DNA from: a bacterium
Lineage (GTDB): Bacteria; JAAXHH01
Direction of reading: 5' to 3'
Length of the DNA stretch: 64,000 nucleotides
Assembly (NCBI GenBank): GCA_965240335.1
Contig: CBDEKM010000018.1
Span: 73,417 to 137,416 of the forward strand
Positions 1,864 through 46,038 of this stretch are shown piece after piece. The notes under the pieces are model-generated. The model saw only the letters and a list, made by a program, of their open reading frames with translations. It ran no database searches and was not told the origin of the DNA. The position numbers and the translations under genes are program-made. The first letter of the stretch is position 1. Each line of letters begins with the position of its first letter.

Positions 1864-3960
1864 TCAGTCCGACACGATCTGGCCGTCGAAAGCCTCCACG
1901 ATCTTCCGGACGGCCGGATCTTTCGCGGCATCGGAACGAGCACCGGTCTCCTGGCTGGCTGTTTTGCCGGCCGCAGGGGGTTCCTGTCCTTCCTTGACTG
2001 TGCTTTCTGCAATGCCCGGATACTCGTCTGCCCCGACACCTGCATCATCTACGCTGGCATTTTCGTGGTCCGCCCCGGATCTGTCGTCGTCCGTTCCGGC
2101 GTTATCATCCCTAGTCCCGGACCTGTCGTCGGCAACGGCGTTATCTTCGATCTCGCACTTGATCCGAACCGGGCTTCCCAGCGCGTTGGAACATACCGCC
2201 TGTATCAGCAAAGCGGTCTCCCGCTTCTCGGCCTGCTCTTTGTGAAAGACTCGGTTGGTTCCGAACCTGAGGGTAATCATTGCGGACCGCTCCGCCCTGG
2301 ACTCTTCGTCCCTGGAGCAGCCGGAAACCTCCGCTTCTGCCAATAGCCTGCCCAGGCCACTACGCTGCTTCGTGATTTCTTCCACGATGGCGGGCCACCG
2401 GTTGCGGACGTCCCGGAGATCGAGTTCCGGGGTGGCCGCCGTAGTCGCTGCGGTCTCCGTAGTCGCTGCGGTCTCCGGACGGTCCCCGGGCTCAGAAACG
2501 GGCGGCGGATTCGATACCGCGCCTGTCGGTGAATCTGGCGCCTCGCCAGTCGCCGCATCCTGGTTCGTAGGGGTCGTCGCATCCTGGTTCGTGCTGACCG
2601 TCGCAGACGTTGGATCTACCGACGGCAACTCAGGAGCCTCACCGGTCGAGGATCCCGATACGGACGGGCCCAGCGCTTCCGGCCGCTCTACGGTACCGGA
2701 TGTATCCTGTCCCTTGCCAGAAAGGTTCGCGTCCCCGTCGAGGTTCGGATCCGGTTTGGCCTCGTGACCGGGAGAATGAGAGTCCGAAGCATCGTCGTCC
2801 CCCTCTCCCGAACCCACGCGACGGGCCATTTCGGATAACCGGTTCATGACCTCTGTCAGTTGCACCGAGCTGGCCATGCGTATCATGCGGACGACGCCGG
2901 TCTCGAGTTGCACCCGGGGAAGAGCGCTTTGCTTGACGGACTGTTCCATCTGCGTGGCCAACTGGGAAAGCCTGAGCAGGTCTTCCGTTTCAAATCGACC
3001 GACCTGTTCCCGGTAGTGGTCGAGTTCCAGGGCGGCGGCGCCGAGCAGCGCTTCCGCTTCGGGCGTCGCCTTGACGACGAGCAGGTTGCGGAGGTGTTCC
3101 AGGATGCCCAGGATGATCTCTTCGAAATCGTGACCCTGTCGGAAGATCCGGTCGACCAGGTCCAGTCCCCGTGGGACGTCCTGGTCCGCCACGATTTCCA
3201 TCAGCTCGAAATAGACGTCCTGGTCCACGATGCCCAGGACCTCCGCCGCTTCACCGGCGGTCAACCCGGTGCCGCCGAAAGCGACGACCTGGTCCAGCAG
3301 ACTTTCGGCATCCCGCATGCTGCCATCCACCCGCCGCGCGATGAGGGCGAGGGCCTCGCGCTGGACGTCGTAGCCGCTCTTTTCACTGATCATGGCCAGG
3401 TGATCTACGATGGTCGGCCCCGATATGCGCCGGAAGTCGAATCGCTGACACCGGGAAAGCACGGTGGGAATCACCTTCCGAGGGTCCGTCGTCGCGAAGA
3501 TGAAGTACACGTGGGGAGGCGGCTCTTCAAGCGTTTTAAGCAACGCGTTGAAGGCCTCCTTGGTCAGCATGTGCACTTCGTCGATGATGTAGATCTTGTG
3601 CTTGCCCTGGCTGGGCGTGTACTTGACGCTCTCGAGCAGATGGGTCCGGACCTGCTCGACGCGGTTGTTGGAAGCGCCGTCGATTTCCAGCACGTCGACG
3701 CTGCGTCCTTCCGAGATTTCCTGGCAGATAGTGCAGGCGTTGCAAGGCGTTACGGTGGGGCCGTCGACGCAGTTCAGGGCCTTGGCCAGGATGCGGGCCG
3801 TTGTCGTTTTACCCACGCCCCGGGGACCGGCAAACAGGTAGGCATGGGCGATCTGGCCGGCCTGTATGGCATTTTTCAGCGTAGTGGTGACGTGTTCCTG
3901 GCCGATTACGCCGTCGAATTCCTGCGGACGCCATTTTCGGGCCGTGACTTCGTAGGCCAA
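1864..3960 (-). CDS. dnaX: DNA polymerase III subunit gamma/tau
   Basis: ORF 1864..4038. AAA+ Walker A (GPRGVGKTTTARILAKAL), zinc module (CNACTICQ). Start chosen as TTG at 3960, preceded by GGAGG 8 nt upstream (gives M-AYEVTARKWRP, the canonical DnaX N-terminus); the ATG at 4003 is an alternative. Long Pro/Thr/acidic linker and acidic C-terminal tail. Confidence 0.9.
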   Translation of the reverse strand: MAYEVTARKWRPQEFDGVIGQEHVTTTLKNAIQAGQIAHAYLFAGPRGVGKTTTARILAKALNCVDGPTVTPCNACTICQEISEGRSVDVLEIDGASNNRVEQVRTHLLESVKYTPSQGKHKIYIIDEVHMLTKEAFNALLKTLEEPPPHVYFIFATTDPRKVIPTVLSRCQRFDFRRISGPTIVDHLAMISEKSGYDVQREALALIARRVDGSMRDAESLLDQVVAFGGTGLTAGEAAEVLGIVDQDVYFELMEIVADQDVPRGLDLVDRIFRQGHDFEEIILGILEHLRNLLVVKATPEAEALLGAAALELDHYREQVGRFETEDLLRLSQLATQMEQSVKQSALPRVQLETGVVRMIRMASSVQLTEVMNRLSEMARRVGSGEGDDDASDSHSPGHEAKPDPNLDGDANLSGKGQDTSGTVERPEALGPSVSGSSTGEAPELPSVDPTSATVSTNQDATTPTNQDAATGEAPDSPTGAVSNPPPVSEPGDRPETAATTETAATTAATPELDLRDVRNRWPAIVEEITKQRSGLGRLLAEAEVSGCSRDEESRAERSAMITLRFGTNRVFHKEQAEKRETALLIQAVCSNALGSPVRIKCEIEDNAVADDRSGTRDDNAGTDDDRSGADHENASVDDAGVGADEYPGIAESTVKEGQEPPAAGKTASQETGARSDAAKDPAVRKIVEAFDGQIVSD
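2441..2476. repeat. perfect 18-bp tandem duplication (gtagtcgctgcggtctcc x2) inside the dnaX linker; a second ~20-bp near-duplicate (..cgcatcctggttcgt.. x2) lies at ~2545-2590
   Basis: Read directly from the sequence; in-frame (encodes duplicated TAATxE / TNQDA segments of the low-complexity linker). Confidence 0.7.
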
Positions 3961-4082
3961 TGCCCAAACCTCCAAGCCTGGGTTACTCGGGACGAGAGGC
4001 ATGCGGAACGGGGCGAAAATAGTAAAGCGGTCGTGCACCCACCCTCGAATCTACTCGTATCGGGGCATCCGTACCGCCGGCT

Positions 4083-4185
4083 CCGGCCAGGCGCTCCTGC
4101 GGCACACGATTATGGCGCTTACCGCTGCTACCTTCCGGTCCTGACGGGGTTGGGCGTTTTCACGTTGCGCAGGACCTGACTTTCA
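4083..4185 (-). ncRNA. ffs: signal recognition particle RNA, small (4.5S) type
   Basis: Minus strand reads ...GTCAGGTCCTGCGCAACGTGAAAACGCCCAACCCCGTCAGGACCGGAAGGTAGCAGCGGTAAGCGCCATAATCGTGTGCCGCAGGAGCGCCTGGCC. It matches the E. coli 4.5S domain IV consensus (CGCAACG...GGUCAGGUCCGGAAGGAAGCAGCC) including the GGAA tetraloop. 5'/3' arms are complementary. Located immediately upstream of dnaX as in many bacteria. Ends approximate (+/-10 nt). Confidence 0.7.
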
Positions 4186-4367
4186 ATACCGGATGTAACA
4201 CATACCGGCGACGCAAGTGCGATCCTTGGGATGGGAATTCGACCCCGCTGTAGCGGGTTGCGGGTTACAGGGCACCGCTAACTCCCCATCTAGCACGACC
4301 GTAATCGTTCCAAGCCTGTAATACGGGATGCAGGGAACGCTCGCTTCGTCGTTACCGGCATCCCGAG

Positions 4368-4440
4368 TGGAGCAGAGCGGAATCGAACCGCCGACCTCCA
4401 GATTGCGATTCTGGCGCTCTCCCAACTGAGCTACTGCCCC
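4368..4440 (-). tRNA. tRNA-Ala (anticodon CGC)
   Basis: Minus strand GGGGCAGTAGCTCAGTTGGGAGAGCGCCAGAATCGCAATCTGGAGGTCGGCGGTTCGATTCCGCTCTGCTCCA folds as a cloverleaf; anticodon loop AUCGCAA; G3:U70 Ala identity pair present; CCA not encoded. Confidence 0.85.
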
Positions 4441-5246: not shown

Positions 5247-5267
5247 GGCATTACGTCTCACGAAATA

Positions 5268-5341
5268 TACGCCCGGAGGGAGTCGAACCCACAACCTCCT
5301 GATCCGTAGTCAGGTGCTCTATCCAATTGAGCTACAGGCGC
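5268..5341 (-). tRNA. tRNA-Arg (anticodon ACG)
   Basis: Minus strand GCGCCTGTAGCTCAATTGGATAGAGCACCTGACTACGGATCAGGAGGTTGTGGGTTCGACTCCCTCCGGGCGTA; anticodon loop CUACGGA; D-arm and anticodon arm canonical; one U:U mismatch in the T-stem and G:U pairs in the acceptor stem; ends +/-2 nt. Confidence 0.75.
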
Positions 5342-5367
5342 TCAGAACCAGCATACCAGAGCACCGC

Positions 5368-5396
5368 AAACTACCGGTCAGGCACGTGAAAGTCAA
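5368..5396 (-). promoter_or_regulatory. candidate sigma70 promoter for tRNA-Arg (TTGACT-N17-TAGTTT)
   Basis: Minus strand ...TTGACTttcacgtgcctgaccggTAGTTTgcggtg..., ~25 nt upstream of the tRNA 5' end; -10 is weak. Confidence 0.3.
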
Positions 5397-5445
5397 GCGA
5401 ATTTTGACTCCGTTCAGGGTGTCCGGAACGTCGAAAATTTGGAGG

Positions 5446-5973
5446 TCAATCGGTACTGCGGTCGTGTCGTTCGAGATAGACTCTTCTCCGTTCAACGTAC
5501 CCTTCCGCGGTTCGGTGAATTCGTTCGATCTGCTCGTCCGTGACGTGACGGATTACGCGACCGGGAACACCCAGGACAAGGGAACCGGGTGGCACGTCCA
5601 TGTGCTCGAGCACCAGCGCGCCGGCGCCGATGATACTATGCTCGCCGATGCGCGCACCGCTGAGGATCACGGCGCCCATAGAGATCAGCGCGTGGTCTTC
5701 CACTACCGCACCGTGGACGATGGCGCGGTGCCCCACGGTCACGCCCTTCCCCAGCACGGCGGGCATGCCGGCGTCGATGTGGATGACGCTGCCGTCCTGC
5801 ACGTTGGTCCCCTCGCCGATGGTAACCGGTTCGTCGTCCGCCCGGATCACCACCTGATACCAGACGCTTGCATTCATCCCGATGTCAACCGCCCCGATCA
5901 GATCGGCGCTCTCCGCCACGAAGGCGGAAGGATGAATAAGGGGAGACTGGTGTACATACTGGTTGGAGGTCAT
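5446..5973 (-). CDS. gamma-class carbonic anhydrase / hexapeptide-repeat (LbH) family protein
   Basis: ORF 5446..6078; ATG at 5973 (MTSNQYVHQSPLIHPSAFV...) preceded by AGGA; left-handed beta-helix hexapeptide repeats and His ligands typical of gamma-CA/YrdA/PaaY. Confidence 0.8.
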   Translation of the reverse strand: MTSNQYVHQSPLIHPSAFVAESADLIGAVDIGMNASVWYQVVIRADDEPVTIGEGTNVQDGSVIHIDAGMPAVLGKGVTVGHRAIVHGAVVEDHALISMGAVILSGARIGEHSIIGAGALVLEHMDVPPGSLVLGVPGRVIRHVTDEQIERIHRTAEGYVERRRVYLERHDRSTD

Positions 5974-5983
5974 GTGGGGATTC

Positions 5984-7276
5984 CTACCCGGCGGCGTCCT
6001 GGGCGCACTGCACCCGGGGGATGACGTAGGGCCCTTTCGGAACGACGGCGATGGTGGCGTCACTGCCATGGCGCTCAAGGGCTCGCGCTATGCCGGCCTC
6101 GACGGATGGGACCGGTTCGACGAGGCAATCCCGCACATCGTCGTCATTCAGGCCGTCCGTATAGAGGTATATCTGTCCCTTCTTCAACGCTTTTACCAGT
6201 TCTTCGATTTCCCACTGGTCGATGGTGAATACGCCCGGTTGCTGGATCGATTCGAGAAAGGCGTCGATATCCGTTGTCATCCGCAGCAGTCCCTCGAATT
6301 CCGCGCTTCCGATCCCATCGGCGCATCCGGCCGCGATGACGATGGATCCGCCCTCCCTGAGAATGTCCAGCACCCCGACCATACCCTTCACTGCCTGGTA
6401 GAACGTAGTATCCAGGGGATAGCCGGCTGAAGAGGTCACGACGATGTCCACCGGTTCCTCGACACTGGCAACCACCATGCTGTCCACATGGCTGACCCCG
6501 TGCAGGTGGGCCTGCTCGAGCTCGCCGGCGAACACCCCGGTAATACGTCGGTCCTCGTCCAGGGACACGTTGAGGATGAAATCGACACCGGCACGCCGGG
6601 CGATTTCCAGGGATGCCTCGTGGAGTGGGTTGCCGTCGAGCACACCCGTCGTGGCGCGGGGATGTTCCAGGATCTTCGGTCCGTGAAGGTATTCGATCGT
6701 CTCCACGCCCACCAGTCCGGGCGCGACCAGCTTGCGCCCACCCGAATAGCCGGCCATGAAGTGGGGTTCGATCAACCCGGTCAGCACCTTGAGATCGCTT
6801 TCGACGTAACGGCGGTCCACGTGGATCGGGATCCCGGTACTCGTGGTCCCGAGATGGGCCTGCTGCGCTCCGATTCGCGCCCGGTGGTTTACAACGGGAT
6901 AGCGGTCGACCACGGCGCCGGTCAGCGTCTCGCGAAGCTGGGCTTCGTCCATGGGGGCGTGCAGTCCTGTGGCAACCAGGAGGGTGATATCCTTCGGCGC
7001 CAGCCCGCTTCGTTCCAGGCTTTCCAGCAGGGGCGGCAGAATGATGTCGTGGGGCACGGGCCGCGTGATGTCGGAAACGACCACGCAGGCATTCCGGCGT
7101 CCAGTGGCTAGTACTTCGAGCGGCGGCCCCGCTACGGGCTGACGAATCGCATCCCGGGTCGCTGCCACGGGATCATCCAGCGGCGGCGTTTCCCGCATGT
7201 TAAGGACTGCTACGAGGTTTTCGTCCGGAACGCGTACGTTGACCCCGGATTTGTGATAATCGAGTTTGATGTTCAT
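5984..7276 (-). CDS. LarA-family protein (DUF2088; nickel-pincer cofactor-dependent 2-hydroxyacid racemase/epimerase family)
   Basis: 430 aa; N-terminal LarA-like domain and overall length typical of lactate racemase homologues; no larB/larC/larE in the window. Confidence 0.75.
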   Translation of the reverse strand: MNIKLDYHKSGVNVRVPDENLVAVLNMRETPPLDDPVAATRDAIRQPVAGPPLEVLATGRRNACVVVSDITRPVPHDIILPPLLESLERSGLAPKDITLLVATGLHAPMDEAQLRETLTGAVVDRYPVVNHRARIGAQQAHLGTTSTGIPIHVDRRYVESDLKVLTGLIEPHFMAGYSGGRKLVAPGLVGVETIEYLHGPKILEHPRATTGVLDGNPLHEASLEIARRAGVDFILNVSLDEDRRITGVFAGELEQAHLHGVSHVDSMVVASVEEPVDIVVTSSAGYPLDTTFYQAVKGMVGVLDILREGGSIVIAAGCADGIGSAEFEGLLRMTTDIDAFLESIQQPGVFTIDQWEIEELVKALKKGQIYLYTDGLNDDDVRDCLVEPVPSVEAGIARALERHGSDATIAVVPKGPYVIPRVQCAQDAAG

Positions 7277-30681: not shown

Positions 30682-30821
30682 AACCAACCAAACATGAAAA
30701 GCGTATAATAAGGCAGGAACGAGAGCGGCCGGATCCTCATCACGTGCCGGATGGGTTGCCACGCAGCCCGTGATGAATGTGGTTTCTCAGAATTAACCTG
30801 ATTCGAGTGGCGGCATGCCGT

Positions 30822-31628
30822 ATGTCCACCTTCAGTCTGGATAACAATCCAAAGCGTCAGTCCGCGTTTTCCCGCATACGTCAGATCCTAAAACGAACGA
30901 TGGTGTCCGGTCTGATTGCACTCATTCCGCTCACTATAACGGTCGCCGTTCTGAGCTGGTTGCTGGCCTGGCTGGATTCCTTCGCCGAACCGGTCATACG
31001 CGGACTGCTGGGGCTGGATACCCGCATACCCGGACTCGGGATCCTGCTTATGCTGGCCGTGATTTTCCTGGCCGGTTTCGTGGCCTCAAACGTGCTGGGC
31101 AGGAGGCTGATCACCTGGTTCGAAGACCTCATGATGCGGCTGCCCGTCGCGCGAAGGGTGTACCATCCGGTAAAAAAACTGTTAGACACTTTCACCATGG
31201 CGGGGGAGACTCGGATCTGGAAAACGGTCCTGGTAGAATATCCCCGGCGCGGGGCCTGGATGATCGCATTCATAGCCGGTGACATGCCGAGTGAAGACAC
31301 GCGTGAAGATATGGTGAGTGTCTTCGTCCCCAATACGCCCAATCCCGCGGCGGGCCGCGTGGTGATCGTGCCTCGGCGGGAGGTGATACCCGTGGATCTG
31401 TCCGTCGAAGAAGCCCTGGAATTCGTCGTGTCCGGAGGCACGGCCTTCAGCAACGAGCTGACCCTGCCTTCGCTGCGGGCAGGCGAACCAACGGCATCCC
31501 GAAGTGTCCATCCTGTTTCTGTATCTCGGACTGACCGTCCGGTACCCTCATCCCGGGCTGATCATCCAGCACCCACATCCCGGAGCGATCGGAGCGTACC
31601 GGTCTCCCAGACGGACGATCCGGTGTAA
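30822..31628 (+). CDS. DUF502 (COG2928) family membrane protein with Ser/Pro/Arg-rich repetitive C-terminal tail
   Basis: ORF 30777; ATG 30822 (MSTFSLDNNPKRQSAFSRIRQILKRTMVSGLIALIPLTITVAVLSWLL...) fits the DUF502 N-terminus; tail has SRTDRPVPSSRADHPAPTSRSDRSVPVSQTDDPV repeats. Confidence 0.7.
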   Translation: MSTFSLDNNPKRQSAFSRIRQILKRTMVSGLIALIPLTITVAVLSWLLAWLDSFAEPVIRGLLGLDTRIPGLGILLMLAVIFLAGFVASNVLGRRLITWFEDLMMRLPVARRVYHPVKKLLDTFTMAGETRIWKTVLVEYPRRGAWMIAFIAGDMPSEDTREDMVSVFVPNTPNPAAGRVVIVPRREVIPVDLSVEEALEFVVSGGTAFSNELTLPSLRAGEPTASRSVHPVSVSRTDRPVPSSRADHPAPTSRSDRSVPVSQTDDPV

Positions 31629-38234: not shown

Positions 38235-39734
38235 ATGGACCATGACCCTCCGCACCCCTACATCGAATTCGAACGGATCTCCAAGCGCTTTCCCAGCGTG
38301 ACCGCACTCGACGAGGTATCCTTCGGTATAGAAGCGGGTACCTGTCACGCCGTGGTCGGTGAAAACGGCGCGGGGAAAAGCACGCTGGGCCGGATCCTGA
38401 CCGGAATCTACGATCTCGACAGTGGACAGATTCGCATAGATGGGCGACCCGCGCAGTTGAATGAACCACGGGACGCCCTGGACATGGGCATCGGCATGGT
38501 CCACCAGGAACTCGTATTCTGCGAGAACCTGTCCGTGGCCGAGAACCTCTGCCTGGGCGCCCTGCCCGGCAAAGCCGGATTCGTATCCGATCGGAAGATG
38601 GAAGACCGGGCCAGGAACATGCTTGCGGCGGTCGACGTGGACATGGACGTGGGAACGCCCATCGGTGAACTGCCGGTCGCCCAGCAGCAACTCGTCCAGG
38701 TCGCGGCGGCCCTTGGCAGCGGCGCCCGCGTGATCGTCTTTGACGAACCGACCAGCAGCCTGTCTCACGTGGAAGCCGAACGGCTGCGGGAGAACATCCG
38801 GCATCTCAAGGCGAAGGGCGTGACGTCGATCTACATATCCCACGACCTGGACGAGATCTTCCGCCTGTGCGATTTCGTGACGGTACTTCGCGACGGCCGG
38901 CACGTGGCTACCCGGCCGGTCTTCGAACTCGACCGGTCCACGCTGATCAACCTGATGATCGGGCGCACTTTCGAGGCCTACTTCCCTTCCCACGTGGAAA
39001 CAGAACCCGGCGATGAGATGCTGGACGTGGACGGACTTTCCAGTTCGGGCAAGTTCGAGAACGTGTCCTTCTCGGTACGGTCCGGGGAGGTACTCGCCCT
39101 GGCCGGCCTGGTAGGCGCCGGCCGGACCGAAGTGCTGCAGGCCGTATTCGGGTTGGATCCCTTGGCCACGGGGCGGATCCGCGTAGCCGGCCGGCCTGTA
39201 AACATCAGGCATCCTATCGACGCGATGCGGACAGGCATCGGGCTCGTGCCCGAAGAACGGAAGCGATACGGTCTCGTCCTGTCCCTCAAAGTAGAGCAAA
39301 ACATCGGCCTTCCCACCCTGACCCGCCGGTCCGAATTCGGGTGGATCCGCGGCAAACGGGAAGGAGACCTGGCGCGGGAATACGTTAAGCGGCTATCGGT
39401 GCGTCCGGACGATGTCCGGTATGAAACGGCGGGGTTGTCTGGAGGCAATCAGCAGAAGGTGGTCCTGGCCAAGTGGCTGGCCGCTCGGTGCCCGGTCCTG
39501 CTGATCGACGAACCCACCCGGGGCGTGGACGTGGGCGCCAAATCGGAAATGCATGCCCTGATCGACGAATTGGCCCACGAAGGCACGGCCATTGTGCTCG
39601 TGTCGAGCGAGTTACCGGAGGTGCTCAACCTTTCGACGCGGATCATGGTGCTCCGTGCGGGATGTATTGCGGGCGAACTGTCCCGCGAAGAAGCGGACCA
39701 GGGCACGGTGATGCGGATGATGGCGGGGATGTAA
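38235..39734 (+). CDS. sugar ABC transporter ATP-binding protein, tandem ABC domains (RbsA/MglA type)
   Basis: ORF 37824, but the in-frame N-terminal part overlaps the SBP. ATG 38235 (MDHDPPHPYIEFERISKRF...). Walker A GENGAGKST; second ABC domain with LSGGNQQKV. Confidence 0.85.
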   Translation: MDHDPPHPYIEFERISKRFPSVTALDEVSFGIEAGTCHAVVGENGAGKSTLGRILTGIYDLDSGQIRIDGRPAQLNEPRDALDMGIGMVHQELVFCENLSVAENLCLGALPGKAGFVSDRKMEDRARNMLAAVDVDMDVGTPIGELPVAQQQLVQVAAALGSGARVIVFDEPTSSLSHVEAERLRENIRHLKAKGVTSIYISHDLDEIFRLCDFVTVLRDGRHVATRPVFELDRSTLINLMIGRTFEAYFPSHVETEPGDEMLDVDGLSSSGKFENVSFSVRSGEVLALAGLVGAGRTEVLQAVFGLDPLATGRIRVAGRPVNIRHPIDAMRTGIGLVPEERKRYGLVLSLKVEQNIGLPTLTRRSEFGWIRGKREGDLAREYVKRLSVRPDDVRYETAGLSGGNQQKVVLAKWLAARCPVLLIDEPTRGVDVGAKSEMHALIDELAHEGTAIVLVSSELPEVLNLSTRIMVLRAGCIAGELSREEADQGTVMRMMAGM

Positions 39735-39984
39735 CGGGAGGTGGGGTTACAACACTGATCCTTTTATCAGATCGGATTTTCTATCAACCTATATATCCGT
39801 AGAATGCAAAAGCCTTTCCCAAATCCCTGTATTGTAATTGTTAACGATTTTTTGATCGCTGAAATGACTAATCAGAAAGTAACTGGTGAATACAGAACTA
39901 ATCTGAAACTTAACTGAGTCAGAAGAACACCTGGTTGATTGATTCAATGGAAACCTTGTAAACGAAGCTAAGGAATGACTTGAA

Positions 39985-40632
39985 GTGAATCTTACTTCCA
40001 ACGAGATCATATCAATTATTCTGTTTCTACTGCCTGGATTTGTAACAGCGGCGATTTTCTTCAGTTACACCTCACATCTCAAACCCAGCCCGTTTGAACG
40101 AGTAATCCAGGCATTGGTTTTCACGATTGTGAACCACGCAACGGTAGAGGTCATACGATTGTGTGGAAAGGTTATTCAATGGTTTTCTGTGCAGATGGAT
40201 GTCGTTTGGATTCGTGTGACTGTAACACAAGTGGCGGTGGTATTGGATTTGATCCCAGACACATTGCTATATGTTACATTTGCAGTTTTGCTTGGTCTTA
40301 CTGCTGTTTATATTGCTAACAATGACACATTCCACCGAATACTTCGCAGATACAGGCTCACTGTGGAGGATTCCTACCCGTCGGAATGGTATTCTGCTTT
40401 CGCGCAAAATAGATCTTATGTCGTTCTACATCTTATTGGCCAGAGACGACTATATGGTTGGCCAAAAGAATGGTCCGGCAACCCAGACAGTGGCCATTTG
40501 TTGATTGCAGAATGTGAATGGCTAGACGGAGATCAGCAAATTCCAGTAAATGGAGTTGATACTATGCTGATACCGGTATCCGATGTGGAAATGGTAGAAT
40601 TTGTAGAGTTAAATCAAGAAGATCAGGAGTAG
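39985..40632 (+). CDS. hypothetical protein, N-terminal 2-3 TM helices + ~100-aa soluble acidic C-terminal domain; encoded in an AT-rich island
   Basis: 215 aa, GTG start (VNLTSNEIISIILFLLPGFVTAAIFFSY...); ~42% GC versus ~64% for neighbours; no recognisable family. Confidence 0.55.
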   Translation: MNLTSNEIISIILFLLPGFVTAAIFFSYTSHLKPSPFERVIQALVFTIVNHATVEVIRLCGKVIQWFSVQMDVVWIRVTVTQVAVVLDLIPDTLLYVTFAVLLGLTAVYIANNDTFHRILRRYRLTVEDSYPSEWYSAFAQNRSYVVLHLIGQRRLYGWPKEWSGNPDSGHLLIAECEWLDGDQQIPVNGVDTMLIPVSDVEMVEFVELNQEDQE

Positions 40633-40635
40633 ACC

Positions 40636-40752
40636 ATGGCTAAGGAACCAGTTTTTCCTTTGAGAAAACCTATCAGTACAAGAGGGACAACACCAAAACC
40701 ACCAAATGTAGTCAAACCACCGCCGCCACCACCACCACCGCCTAAAAAGTAA
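40636..40752 (+). CDS. 38-aa proline-rich peptide MAKEPVFPLRKPISTRGTTPKPPNVVKPPPPPPPPPKK
   Basis: ATG 3 nt after the upstream stop with AGGAG 7 nt upstream (translational coupling); nine consecutive Pro codons; AT-rich codon usage like the upstream gene; below the ORF-track size cutoff. Confidence 0.4.
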   Translation: MAKEPVFPLRKPISTRGTTPKPPNVVKPPPPPPPPPKK

Positions 40753-40776
40753 TGGTTAAACAAGGTGTGATGATTA

Positions 40777-41595
40777 TTACATATCCCGCTTCGGCGGCGC
40801 GGCCGCGACCCCTTCCATGCCGCCGCTCACCCGAAGGACTACTCCGGTAATCCAGCCCGCCGCGGGACTGCAGAGGAACGCCACGCCGTTGGCGATGTCC
40901 TCCGGATCGCCCCACCTGCCCAGGGGAATGGCGCCGCGGATGCGTTCGATCATCTGGTCTTCGGTCAACCCCAGTGTTTTGCTGCGCTGGGCCATGTTCG
41001 ACCGGTTGAATTCGGTGTAGACCGGACCCGGGCAGACGGCGTTCACCCGGACTCCATACGCCGCCAGTTCAAGCGCCAGCGTTCGTGTGAGACTGATTAC
41101 CCCCTCCTTGGCCACGTTGTACGCCGCGACCAGGGCCGCAGGATTCTGTCCGTTGATGGAAGAGATGTTCACGATACAACCTGATTCCTGCCGTTCCATG
41201 ATCCCGCCCGCGGCCCGGCAGCAGTAAAACGTCCCGGTCAGCGTAACCCGCATGACCCGTTCCCACTCCGCATCGTCCAGTTCGACGACGGGCGTTACCT
41301 TCTGGCCAACCCCGGCGTTGTTTACCAGTATGTCCAGCCGGCCATGGTCGTCGTTGATCGCACTGAAAAACGCATTAACCGAAACGCTGTCCGCCACGTT
41401 CAGGTACCCGGGAACCACCTCCAACCCCTTCTCTTGAAGCTTCCTGGCTTCTTCTCCCACCTTCTCGCGCTGCAAGTCCGCCATCAGCACGGTCGCGCCA
41501 TTCCGCGCCAGCCGTTCAGAAATGCCCAGTCCAAGCCCCTGCGCCGCGCCGGTCACGACGGCTATGGTTCCGTCTATACGAAGTGGGTCGTCCAT
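40777..41595 (-). CDS. SDR-family oxidoreductase (3-oxoacyl-ACP reductase-like)
   Basis: ORF to 41694; ATG 41595 (MDDPLRIDGTIAVVTGAAQGLGLGI...) with AAAGGA upstream; TGxxxGxG, NNAG, YxxxK. Confidence 0.85.
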   Translation of the reverse strand: MDDPLRIDGTIAVVTGAAQGLGLGISERLARNGATVLMADLQREKVGEEARKLQEKGLEVVPGYLNVADSVSVNAFFSAINDDHGRLDILVNNAGVGQKVTPVVELDDAEWERVMRVTLTGTFYCCRAAGGIMERQESGCIVNISSINGQNPAALVAAYNVAKEGVISLTRTLALELAAYGVRVNAVCPGPVYTEFNRSNMAQRSKTLGLTEDQMIERIRGAIPLGRWGDPEDIANGVAFLCSPAAGWITGVVLRVSGGMEGVAAAPPKRDM

Positions 41596-45324: not shown

Positions 45325-46038
45325 ATGTGTGGCCGCCTTTCGCAAAACCTGACCTGGCAACAGATCTACACGTTGTATACCCTGCCTGTTTCATCACCGC
45401 GGATTGATCCGCAACCCAGGTACAACGGCGCTCCGACCCAGGAATTCGTCCTTTGCCGCCTGAATGAAAGCGGAACGAGATCCATGTCCGCGCTCCGATG
45501 GGGATTGGTTCCGTTCTGGGCAAAGGACGCCAAAATCGGCGCTCGGCTCATTAATGCAAGAGCGGAGACGGTAAAGGACAAACCCGCCTTCCGTTCAGCG
45601 TTCCGGGCGCGCCGGTGCCTCATCCCGACGAATGGATGGTTCGAATGGAGGCGGACCGGGCGGTCCGGGCGGTCCGGGCGGTCCGGGGGCAGCAAGCAAC
45701 CCTATTTCCTGGCACTCGAAAGCGGTTTCCCCGTTTCCTTCGCCGCACTGTGGGAGCAGTGGGCCCGGGACAGTCAACATCTCGAAACATTTACCATCAT
45801 CACGACCGATGCCTCGCCCTCTCTTTCAGATATACACGATCGCCAGCCCGCAGTGGTAGATTCCGACGATTTCACCGATTGGCTCGACCCCCAGACGCCG
45901 GTTGAAACGCTTCAGGAAATCATTCGGACGCCCCACGAAGGACCGTACGAAATCCGCCCTGTCAGCGACTTGGTAAACCGGGTAGCCAACGACACACCGG
46001 ACATCCTCACACCGCAGGTGAGAAATACGCTGTTCTAG
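45325..46038 (+). CDS. yedK: SOS response-associated peptidase (SRAP/YedK, abasic-site processing protein)
   Basis: 237 aa; N-terminal MCGR with catalytic Cys2; SRAP fold motifs (YNGAPTQ, NARAET, IPTNGWFEW). Confidence 0.85.
   Translation: MCGRLSQNLTWQQIYTLYTLPVSSPRIDPQPRYNGAPTQEFVLCRLNESGTRSMSALRWGLVPFWAKDAKIGARLINARAETVKDKPAFRSAFRARRCLIPTNGWFEWRRTGRSGRSGRSGGSKQPYFLALESGFPVSFAALWEQWARDSQHLETFTIITTDASPSLSDIHDRQPAVVDSDDFTDWLDPQTPVETLQEIIRTPHEGPYEIRPVSDLVNRVANDTPDILTPQVRNTLF
45657..45688. repeat. 9-bp perfect tandem repeat (cgggcggtc)x3 + partial, in-frame within yedK (encodes GRSGRSGRSG)
   Basis: Read directly; creates PGPPGPPGPP-type ORFs in other frames. Confidence 0.7.

Follow-up and report, generated by a model that had tools for sequence, protein, structure and literature searches.

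A 38-codon open reading frame and its polyproline relatives are genetic partners of DUF6338 membrane proteins

The closest described counterparts of the gene analyzed here are three small proteins of Pseudomonas (Stutzerimonas) stutzeri ATCC 14405, SEP1 (MVSSPGSGVQTNGANPPAPANVRPAMAPTAPPPPKK), SEP5 (MASRTDQGKSGWVGTQDGINVNPPAPTNIRPAQPPKAPPPPPKRDSK) and SEP2 (MTKKIGGNPGSPVQGGVNKETTSQRPSAPPSAPPPPPKKGG) (Meier-Credo et al. 2023, PMC10433244). They were detected by mass spectrometry with 85, 114 and 44 spectral matches, respectively, and with 98-100% sequence coverage (PMC10433244). The three proteins came from extracts of cells in healthy cultures, and their predicted location is the cytoplasm. The authors considered them not conserved outside P. 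stutzeri and thus possible de novo genes, and they also raised the idea that the peptides could be antimicrobial (PMC10433244). Here we describe a small open reading frame (ORF) located in a 64,000-nt stretch of DNA from a bacterium of the GTDB lineage JAAXHH01 (GenBank assembly GCA_965240335.1, contig CBDEKM010000018.1, positions 73,417 to 137,416 of the forward strand). We refer to this whole stretch as the window, and all window coordinates count from its first letter. The ORF lies at 40636..40752 on the plus strand, directly 3' of a gene for a membrane protein of the DUF6338 family, and its product, the window peptide, contains nine consecutive prolines.

The genes for SEP1, SEP5 and SEP2 are located downstream of a DUF6338 gene, Pstu14405_RS12030. 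Like the window peptide, the three proteins are encoded directly 3' of DUF6338 on the same strand, are 36-47 aa long, and are basic and Pro-rich. Unlike the window peptide, they form three tandem copies and have Pro runs of 4-5. They end in APPPPK[KR] or PPPPPK[KR], and their middle block, G-x-N-(V)-N-PP-x-P-x-N-[VI]-R-P, is common to the gammaproteobacterial members of the family described below. SEP1, SEP5 and SEP2 align block for block with these gammaproteobacterial members, which grade into a subfamily starting with MAKEP. As the peptides are short, the relationship between the P. stutzeri proteins and the family is based on motifs and genomic context and not on pairwise E-values. The three proteins are the sole experimental proof for the production of such peptides, and the organism in which they were found is P. 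stutzeri. The species specificity proposed for them is contradicted by the distribution of their relatives, which, judged from sequence comparison, form one family in at least ten phyla. The published view of the P. stutzeri peptides as species-specific de novo products is thereby corrected.

Several better-known systems share particular features with the window family. The proline-rich antimicrobial peptides (PrAMPs) oncocin, Bac7, apidaecin and drosocin are, like the members of the window family, short, cationic and Pro-rich, and are expected to be extended or to take up a polyproline II (PPII) conformation. PrAMPs are secreted by eukaryotes for host defence and carry Arg-Pro (PRP) repeats; they are taken up by SbmA and then bind the exit tunnel of the ribosome. 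The window family, in contrast, is bacterial, leaderless and Lys-rich, its Pro tract is homopolymeric, and its genes are linked to that of a membrane protein. Consecutive Pro codons are also shared with the mgtP and mgtL leaders of Salmonella, with CadC (PPPIP) and with RAPP-type arrest peptides, in which the rate of translation is set by elongation factor P (EF-P) or by the supply of prolyl-tRNA. These elements are located upstream of the genes they control or are motifs within a large protein, whereas the window ORF is a last cistron, a homologue of its product accumulates, and the blocks outside the Pro tract are conserved. The PRAD/ColQ-WAT assembly of acetylcholinesterase, in which a PPII helix organises Trp-rich subunits, provides a structural analogy only. 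As in the function that we propose below, a short polyproline of fixed length would be the ligand of aromatic-rich domains, but PRAD/ColQ-WAT is eukaryotic and extracellular and has a helical partner, and no homology is implied. Finally, Sucellos, a RexAB-like system of the Vibrio cholerae superintegron, consists of two co-oriented genes in one attC cassette, one of which encodes a membrane protein, as is the case for the Vibrio form of the module studied here (bioRxiv 10.1101/2024.07.02.601686). Sucellos is unrelated to the DUF6338 module in both sequence and structure, and the partner in the module is a 40-aa polyproline peptide. We conclude that no described system corresponds to the pairing of DUF6338 with a polyproline microprotein.

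The window ORF starts with an ATG at 40636 and ends with a TAA at 40750-40752. Its 38-aa product (MAKEPVFPLRKPISTRGTTPKPPNVVKPPPPPPPPPKK) has a net charge of +7 and consists of 42% Pro. A Shine-Dalgarno (SD) sequence, AGGAG (40625-40629, plus strand), is located 6 nt before the ATG, within the last codons of the DUF6338 gene. The stop codon of that gene (TAG, 40630-40632) is followed 3 nt further by the ATG of the small ORF, in the same frame, so that TAG ACC stands between the two coding sequences. The good ribosome binding site and the coupled start noted in the original prediction, which was made from the sequence of the window, are borne out by these exact positions. A (CCN)9 tract (40717-40743, plus strand; CCA CCG CCG CCA CCA CCA CCA CCG CCT) encodes the nine prolines (P9), which have Lys on both sides, and the peptide ends in KP9KK. 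No other run of at least five prolines is encoded in any of the six frames of the window. Shuffled sequences matched for composition had 0.63 runs of this kind per window, and a run of nine was found in none of 200. No hydrophobic or double-glycine segment, and no signal peptide or leader, was found at the N-terminus of the window peptide, and the peptide has no PRP or PRPxP repeats.

The conservation of the small ORF was evaluated across DUF6338 loci. One genome per species was scanned, which gave 248 DUF6338 loci; the best 80 of these, six metagenome loci and the window form a set of 87 loci. A distant set of 33 IMG/VR loci (32-44% identity) and a single plasmid locus bring the total to 121. 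The loci represent Binatia, Chloroflexota, Acidobacteriota, Nitrospirota, Nitrospinota, Planctomycetota, Bacteroidota, Spirochaetota (Leptospira), Verrucomicrobiota (Opitutales), Thermodesulfobacteriota and Alpha-, Beta- and Gammaproteobacteria, and thus at least ten phyla overall. A complete Pro-rich ORF is present right after DUF6338 in 86 of the 87 loci; at the 87th (L015) the ORF begins (MAKEQNPPPGRAGK...) and the contig then ends. Within the distant set, 25 of the 33 loci passed the filter, seven were found by eye and have weaker tails such as RPPAPAAPPPKRK, and the remaining contig (L099) ends at the DUF6338 stop, without downstream sequence. In total, a complete downstream Pro-rich ORF was identified in 119 of the 121 loci, i.e., in all of those with enough downstream sequence, and in every such locus the two genes are adjacent and on the same strand. 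The association also holds in the reverse direction. Four peptides were retrieved with a profile built from peptides only, and each is encoded directly 3' of a DUF6338 gene. DUF6338 and the peptide are in separate ORFs at L077 and L079.

Sponge-associated and related metagenome bins, which are labelled Latescibacterota or Gemmatimonadota, are the source of the closest DUF6338 homologues (72-84% identity), and the chromosomal site in them is the same as in the window. The small ORF is kept in all of these syntenic orthologues, for example as MAKEPVPPPRKPISTRGITPKPPNVVKPPPPPPPPPKK and MAKKPLPPPRRISEETRGQTPKPANVVKPPPPPPPPPKK, the latter with an in-frame indel of one codon. Loss of the small ORF where the upstream gene is kept, which the original prediction had put forward as evidence that would count against it, was searched for and was seen at none of the 119 DUF6338 loci. 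We conclude that the small ORF is a real protein-coding gene and not a chance ORF, and that the peptide family is an obligate genetic partner of DUF6338 membrane proteins to which it is translationally coupled.

At some loci the peptide gene is present in more than one copy. Two to four diverged tandem peptide genes follow a single DUF6338 gene at L033, L066, L086, L102, L103/L104, L109 and L122, and tandem peptide genes are also present in P. stutzeri (CP036186, 2666728-2667116). At L042 (3939-4112) the second of the peptide copies is preceded, in the same frame, by a degenerate duplicated 3' end of DUF6338 (...EVEMVEYPEQPERTQAMAKEPIPPP...), an arrangement that looks like a duplication scar.

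The peptides are 21-59 aa long in the first locus set (median 43) and reach 67 aa in the distant set, with medians of 35% Pro and a net charge of +7. Three blocks can be distinguished. Block 1 is M-[AS]-K-[EK]-P-x-P-P-P-[SP]-[RK], block 2 is G-[VIL]-[SN]-P-[KP]-P followed by x3-[VR]-[KR]-P, and block 3, the most conserved, is the Pro tract followed by K/R. The nine-position frame [KR]-P-x-P-P-P-x-P-P-P-[KR], into which the window tract fits, is present in 55 of 85 distinct peptides, and in 28 of these it is a pure P9. The length of the longest Pro run ranges from 3 to 13 and has its mode at 9 (29 of 81 loci), and a PP or PPP motif is the minimum in every member. Distant subfamilies have PPAPAAPPPK[RK] in place of P9, and the distance between the N-terminal block and the tract differs by >30 residues among members. 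The window peptide belongs to the MAKEP...KP9KK subfamily. Its PLRKP segment, which had been taken as a resemblance to PrAMPs, turned out to be a local, lineage-specific variant: the syntenic orthologues have PPPRKP, PPPRRI or PPPRKS at this place, and the family consensus is PPPS[RK]R.

These peptides have escaped annotation. No Pfam or NCBIfam model matched any of 39 family members, no PHROG match was obtained either, and PADLOC returned no match for either protein of the module. A marginal match of one member to Pfam PRIMA1 (E = 1) is not significant. The sequence of the window peptide is absent from ~15 billion predicted proteins. A profile was searched exhaustively against 1.84 billion cluster representatives, which stand for ~15 billion predicted proteins, and gave 61 matches, nearly all of them stand-alone proteins of 38-56 aa, and the family profile recovers both subfamilies and almost nothing else from these representatives. 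The few named matches carry the label 'hypothetical'. There are also longer 'fusion' matches of 80-214 aa, whose tails, based on inspection by eye only, resemble read-through or mis-called extensions. Compared with the 61 peptide representatives, 2748 DUF6338 clusters were found. At L005 (3639-3761, minus strand) the gene called by the Joint Genome Institute (JGI) is an antisense poly-Gly ORF (MGGGGGGGGGLTTF...) and not the plus-strand polyproline ORF, from which it follows that gene callers mishandle the polyproline tract. Sequence comparison delineates a phylum-spanning family of essentially unannotated, basic, Pro-rich microproteins. The 38-codon ORF of the window is the type example of this large conserved family, which could be added to annotation pipelines by a rule that combines a profile with genomic context.

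Translation and selection were evaluated at the same loci. An SD-like motif is located ahead of 74 of the 87 peptide ORFs. Relative to DUF6338, the peptide ORFs are in frame 0, +1 and +2 in 40, 33 and 8 loci, respectively, with offsets from -58 to +33 (mode +4); in many loci the overlap with the DUF6338 stop amounts to 7-58 nt. Because frame and offset vary among loci, read-through of the DUF6338 stop is not a general mechanism. The nucleotide alignment of the syntenic orthologues is strictly three-periodic, as variation is confined to the third codon position, and conservation collapses past the stop codon. P9 is invariant in six orthologues, with varying wobble bases in the CCN codons, and the pooled tract codons are CCG (257), CCA (186), CCT (109) and CCC (59). 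The wobble-aligned antisense frame is broken by stop codons in 26 of 86 loci. We conclude that selection acts on the peptide sequence, including the tract of fixed length. Translation of polyproline tracts depends on EF-P, and the synthesis of P9 is expected, from established polyproline biology and in line with the suspicion in the original prediction, to depend on it as well. Members with nine to 13 prolines conserved by selection offer a natural substrate on which EF-P dependence, and its possible role as a physiological signal, can be assayed easily. The longest Pro run is 8 in E. coli and 4 in B. subtilis (PMC13602936), so the runs of 9-13 in the family are at or past the genome-wide maximum of model bacteria.

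The DUF6338 gene of the window (39985..40632, plus strand) encodes a protein of 215 aa that matches Pfam PF19865 (E 3.7e-14) and has 1474 homologues. In an AlphaFold2 model based on a 120-sequence alignment (mean predicted local distance difference test score, pLDDT, 85), membrane helices are placed at residues 5-28, 36-71, 74-89 and 92-113. Both the Pfam match and these N-terminal helices agree with the earlier description of the upstream product as a membrane protein. The C-terminal part of the model consists of a helix (134-141) and a five- to six-stranded barrel (145-207). In a Foldseek comparison with the PDB, the top 50 matches are all Sm/LSm proteins, with archaeal and eukaryotic Sm proteins among them (E ~5e-5, TM-score on target 0.75-0.85), and the C-terminal domain is modelled as an Sm/LSm-like beta-barrel. 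Many aromatic and charged residues of the barrel and the preceding helix are invariant (W135, Y136, F139, H149, R154, Y157, W159, W163, H171 and W179). A basic stretch, HRILRRYR, follows the last membrane helix. Based on the positive-inside rule, the barrel is therefore likely cytoplasmic and would thus be in the same compartment as the leaderless peptide. DUF6338 gains from these results its first structural and functional handles, namely a membrane anchor, a predicted Sm-like domain and an obligate polyproline partner. The NCBIfam and Pfam scan of the module returned DUF6338 only and no toxin-antitoxin (TA) or defence model, and literature searches for PF19865, VCA0365 and Q9KMN5 found nothing.

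The architecture of DUF6338 is similar to that of the MscS-family channels YnaI and MscS, in which transmembrane helices are followed by an Sm-like beta domain. Homology to MscS was considered and rejected: the PDB matches in hmmsearch are to YnaI only, the best of them with a non-significant E-value of 0.17 and confined to the transmembrane region, and hhalign against E. coli MscS gave a probability of 0.1%. Sm/LSm/Hfq rings provide a second parallel, as the predicted C-terminal domain superposes on Sm proteins.

One of the 120 best DUF6338 matches, P0233, is a natural in-frame fusion of DUF6338 and the peptide (...VDMVEFLKSTRPDEDKEKQ-MAKKPTPPP...). The sequence of this single case is compatible with a physical association of the two proteins. 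Two other DUF6338 database proteins, P0025 and P0072, have short C-terminal extensions in the alignment, e.g., ...EEMMYGQRTDASPEQTGKAE.

We give about even credence to the reading that the finished peptide, and not its mere translation, is the functional entity, and that it is a cytoplasmic partner of the Sm-like domain of DUF6338. We infer this partnership from the genetic coupling, the selection on the peptide, the structure model and the homologues detected by mass spectrometry. The microprotein would act in the cytoplasm as a PPII ligand or a regulatory subunit of the aromatic-rich Sm-like domain, which DUF6338 would hold at the inner face of the membrane. Because P9 needs EF-P, the supply of peptide may report translation capacity, and EF-P-dependent synthesis could in this way tie the state of the membrane protein to that capacity. 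Conflict or addiction, stress and transport are candidate physiological outputs.

Several points weigh against such a partnership. The DUF6338 protein was not detected in the P. stutzeri study, in which membrane fractions were not analysed (PMC10433244). In the AlphaFold2 model of the P0233 fusion the peptide part has a pLDDT of 29-49, which makes the model uninformative on docking, and the fusion itself may be an artefact of a wrongly assembled stop codon in a metagenome. With regard to selection, the pN/pS of the plus frame (0.18) is close to that of the wobble-aligned antisense frame (0.20) and cannot by itself tell the two frames apart; for this reason, the assignment of the strand is based on the start codon, the SD sequence, the antisense stops, the genomic context and mass spectrometry.

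A bolder form of the partnership, to which we give rather little weight, is a new two-component module in which the EF-P-dependent polyproline microprotein, a nine-residue PPII 'ruler' between lysines, would act on a membrane-anchored ring of Sm-like domains by plugging it, assembling it or gating it. If true, the capacity of the cell for polyproline translation (EF-P, prolyl-tRNA or overall translation) would be read out at the membrane, and the module would represent a switch of a new class, for addiction, abortive infection or stress, that has spread across phyla by integrons and islands.

The genomic setting of the pair was examined in the window and across the loci. In the composition profile of the window, the two genes lie in a low-GC island (39740..40760) of 40-45% GC, compared with ~61% for the genome; the GC content of the module is 0.436 vs 0.614 for its flanks. 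On the left the island is bordered by an ABC-transporter ATPase gene on the plus strand, which ends at 39734, and on the right by a convergent gene for a short-chain dehydrogenase (SDR; 40777..41595, minus strand) that is reached 25 nt past the small ORF. The AT-rich intergenic region upstream of DUF6338 (39735..39984, plus strand) is the presumed site of the module promoter. When aligned to four orthologues, it has conserved blocks and a conserved AGGGAG-type SD ahead of the DUF6338 start. A consensus promoter scan of this region gave nothing convincing, and scanning the island for promoters and terminators yielded no useful information. The low-GC island is retained in the syntenic orthologues L001-L009 (~2750-3780), where the GC content of the module is 18-22 points under that of the flanks despite protein identities of 72-84%. 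As this gap is kept in all syntenic orthologues despite their divergence, the GC content of the module has not drifted toward the host value. Across loci, the module is >5 points under its flanks in 66 of 84 cases and >5 points over them in none of the 84.

The same junction carries other cargo in a close relative. In L131 (metagenome contig LXNJ01000814.1) the flanking ABC, SDR and SBP genes are 87-89% identical to those of the window, and the ABC|SDR junction (3770-4386) contains ~600 nt of AT-rich sequence without DUF6338. This cargo consists of two small overlapping ORFs of 46 and 73 aa on the opposite strand, neither of which has a Pfam match. Because L131 carries different cargo at the same site, the ABC|SDR junction is a variable hotspot. 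In the window, the sequence immediately 3' of the small-ORF stop (40753-40776; TGGTTAAACAAGG) includes GTTAAAC, which matches the integron core GTTRRRY. GTTAAGT is present at the corresponding spot in L005, and L006 and L008 have no match. The GTTAAAC may be due to chance or may be the leftover end of a cassette; no attC was recognised in the window.

In Vibrio, DUF6338 and the peptide gene form one integron cassette that contains only these two genes. At L087, VCR-type attC repeats (5259-5381 and 6115-6245) enclose DUF6338 (5398-5997) and the peptide gene (6001-6126), and the cassette of V. cholerae ATCC 14035 (L070) has the same layout. An Rfam scan of the Vibrio cassette loci matched no family, and the attC sites were therefore recognised from the repeats. 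The distance from the preceding attC to the DUF6338 start is only ~15 nt, which leaves no room for a promoter of the cassette's own. The TAA stop codon of the peptide doubles as the opening triplet of TAACAAA, the core of the next attC (L087 6124-6126; L070 1261-1263). The identical pair is also found in Vibrio inside islands with AlpA, pyocin S/CdiI, DUF4365 and UvrD-like genes. The complete DUF6338 cassette of V. cholerae encodes Q9KMN5, and VC_A0365 of strain N16961 is a second, truncated copy. As V. cholerae carries the module as an integron cassette, its genetics are within reach.

A survey of neighbours at 36 other loci identified no third gene in common. Among 145 flanking proteins, a few are restriction-modification, OLD or AbiL proteins and the majority are metabolic. 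We conclude that the pair travels as a self-sufficient two-gene unit. The module was found in none of 50,697 phage records and in one of 72,556 plasmids, a DNA-level search found no homologue in E. coli genomes, and 33 predicted proviral contigs from IMG/VR carry DUF6338 loci. The sole plasmid homologue (Paludisphaera, RefSeq) has the peptide ORF, for which there is no gene in the PLSDB gene table, a table that is itself incomplete. On this plasmid (PALBO2 of Paludisphaera borealis; L092 472-4717), the module follows two same-strand genes, one for an 'ATP-binding protein' and the other for an S8 peptidase, and lies close to a tyrosine recombinase and a ParDE pair.

Of the alternatives to a cytoplasmic partnership between the peptide and the Sm-like domain, the one that survives best, although we consider it unlikely, is that the pair is a sensor of translation capacity, EF-P or proline, organised like a TA or abortive-infection pair. 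DUF6338 would be the membrane effector, perhaps as an Sm-like ring or pore, kept in check by the hard-to-translate polyproline microprotein as a labile inhibitor. Under stress or phage takeover, with a drop in EF-P activity, in prolyl-tRNA or in translation as a whole, less peptide would be made and the effector would be freed. A mobile, self-contained pair of a membrane protein and a tiny partner is what such a system would look like. The pair is found in integron arrays, in the AlpA/pyocin/DUF4365/UvrD islands and in predicted proviruses, type IIG restriction enzymes or OLD/AbiL-like proteins occur among its neighbours, and the chromosomal site of the window holds different small cargo in L131. 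The PP or PPP minimum of all members and the Pro runs of 9-13, which are exceptional in bacteria (PMC13602936), also agree with a sensor of this kind. However, no PADLOC, TA or Abi model matched, many loci are located between housekeeping genes, and the module is absent from the phage records and nearly so from the plasmids. The Vibrio cassette, with its ~15 nt of leading sequence, appears to be promoterless, unlike the TA cassettes of the superintegron, and the P. stutzeri peptides are abundant and not visibly labile. A screen by Darracq et al., in which 88 cassettes were cloned, identified 16 anti-phage cassettes. VC_A0365 is not among these 16, with the limit that the two DUF6338 cassettes may have been outside the 88.

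That the small ORF serves only as a stalling device acting in cis, one of the two possibilities in the original prediction, was weakened by the comparison of loci, and we now regard it as improbable. The pause itself would matter, for mRNA stability, for the coupling of transcription and translation or for control of the module, and the released peptide would have no function. The Pro tract is indeed the most conserved block, and because it is located near the C-terminus of a very short ORF the entire nascent chain would be in the exit tunnel during the pause. There is, however, nothing downstream for a stall to regulate, as the small ORF is the last cistron before a convergent gene in the window (SDR, 25 nt on) and immediately before attC in Vibrio. 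The N-terminal and middle blocks are conserved as amino acids, and the distance from block 1 to the tract, variable by >30 residues, does not provide a fixed geometry. Distant subfamilies have only the degenerate PPAPAAPPPK[RK], and some loci have tandem arrays of two to four peptide genes. Full-length peptides accumulate in P. stutzeri, where they gave 44-114 spectral matches (PMC10433244).

The other possibility in the original prediction was a PrAMP-like peptide. Its first part, that the ORF encodes a genuine ribosomally made peptide, is supported by the 119 of 119 loci and by the homologues detected by mass spectrometry. Its second part is not supported, and we consider it very improbable that the peptide is an antimicrobial, a bacteriocin or a toxin aimed at the cell's own ribosomes, for which DUF6338 would provide immunity, export or sequestration. 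The peptides are short, strongly cationic (median +7) and ~35% Pro. A peptide gene beside a small membrane-protein gene is a common layout for bacteriocin and immunity genes, and the module resembles it. The same idea occurred to the authors of the P. stutzeri study (PMC10433244). On the other hand, no signal peptide, double-glycine leader or exporter was found, and the Vibrio cassette contains two genes only. PRP and PRPxP repeats are absent, PLRKP is specific to one lineage, and there is no Pfam, NCBIfam or PHROG match. SEP1, SEP5 and SEP2, present in extracts of healthy cultures, have a predicted cytoplasmic location (PMC10433244), and the fold of DUF6338, with membrane helices and a modelled Sm-like barrel, is unlike that of any known immunity protein.

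It is scarcely credible that the small ORF is not an independent gene but a TAG read-through extension of DUF6338, an antisense poly-Gly ORF or a chance ORF: the in-frame arrangement in the window with TAG ACC between the ORFs, the one in-frame fusion in the database, the equally low antisense pN/pS and the antisense ORF annotated by JGI would fit, but the ORF has its own ATG and SD, its relatives occur in all three frames with starts that overlap the DUF6338 stop, stop codons break up the antisense frame at 26 of 86 loci, a P9 did not arise in any of the 200 shuffles, and plus-strand peptides were detected by mass spectrometry with 98-100% coverage (PMC10433244).

Two further repetitive coding segments were observed elsewhere in the window. 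The C-terminus of the ORF at 30777..31628 (plus strand) contains degenerate tandem repeats of ~8 residues (31480-31628; SRTDRPVP / SRADHPAP / SRSDRSVP), and the SRAP-domain ORF at 45325..46038 has a GRSGRSGRSG insert.

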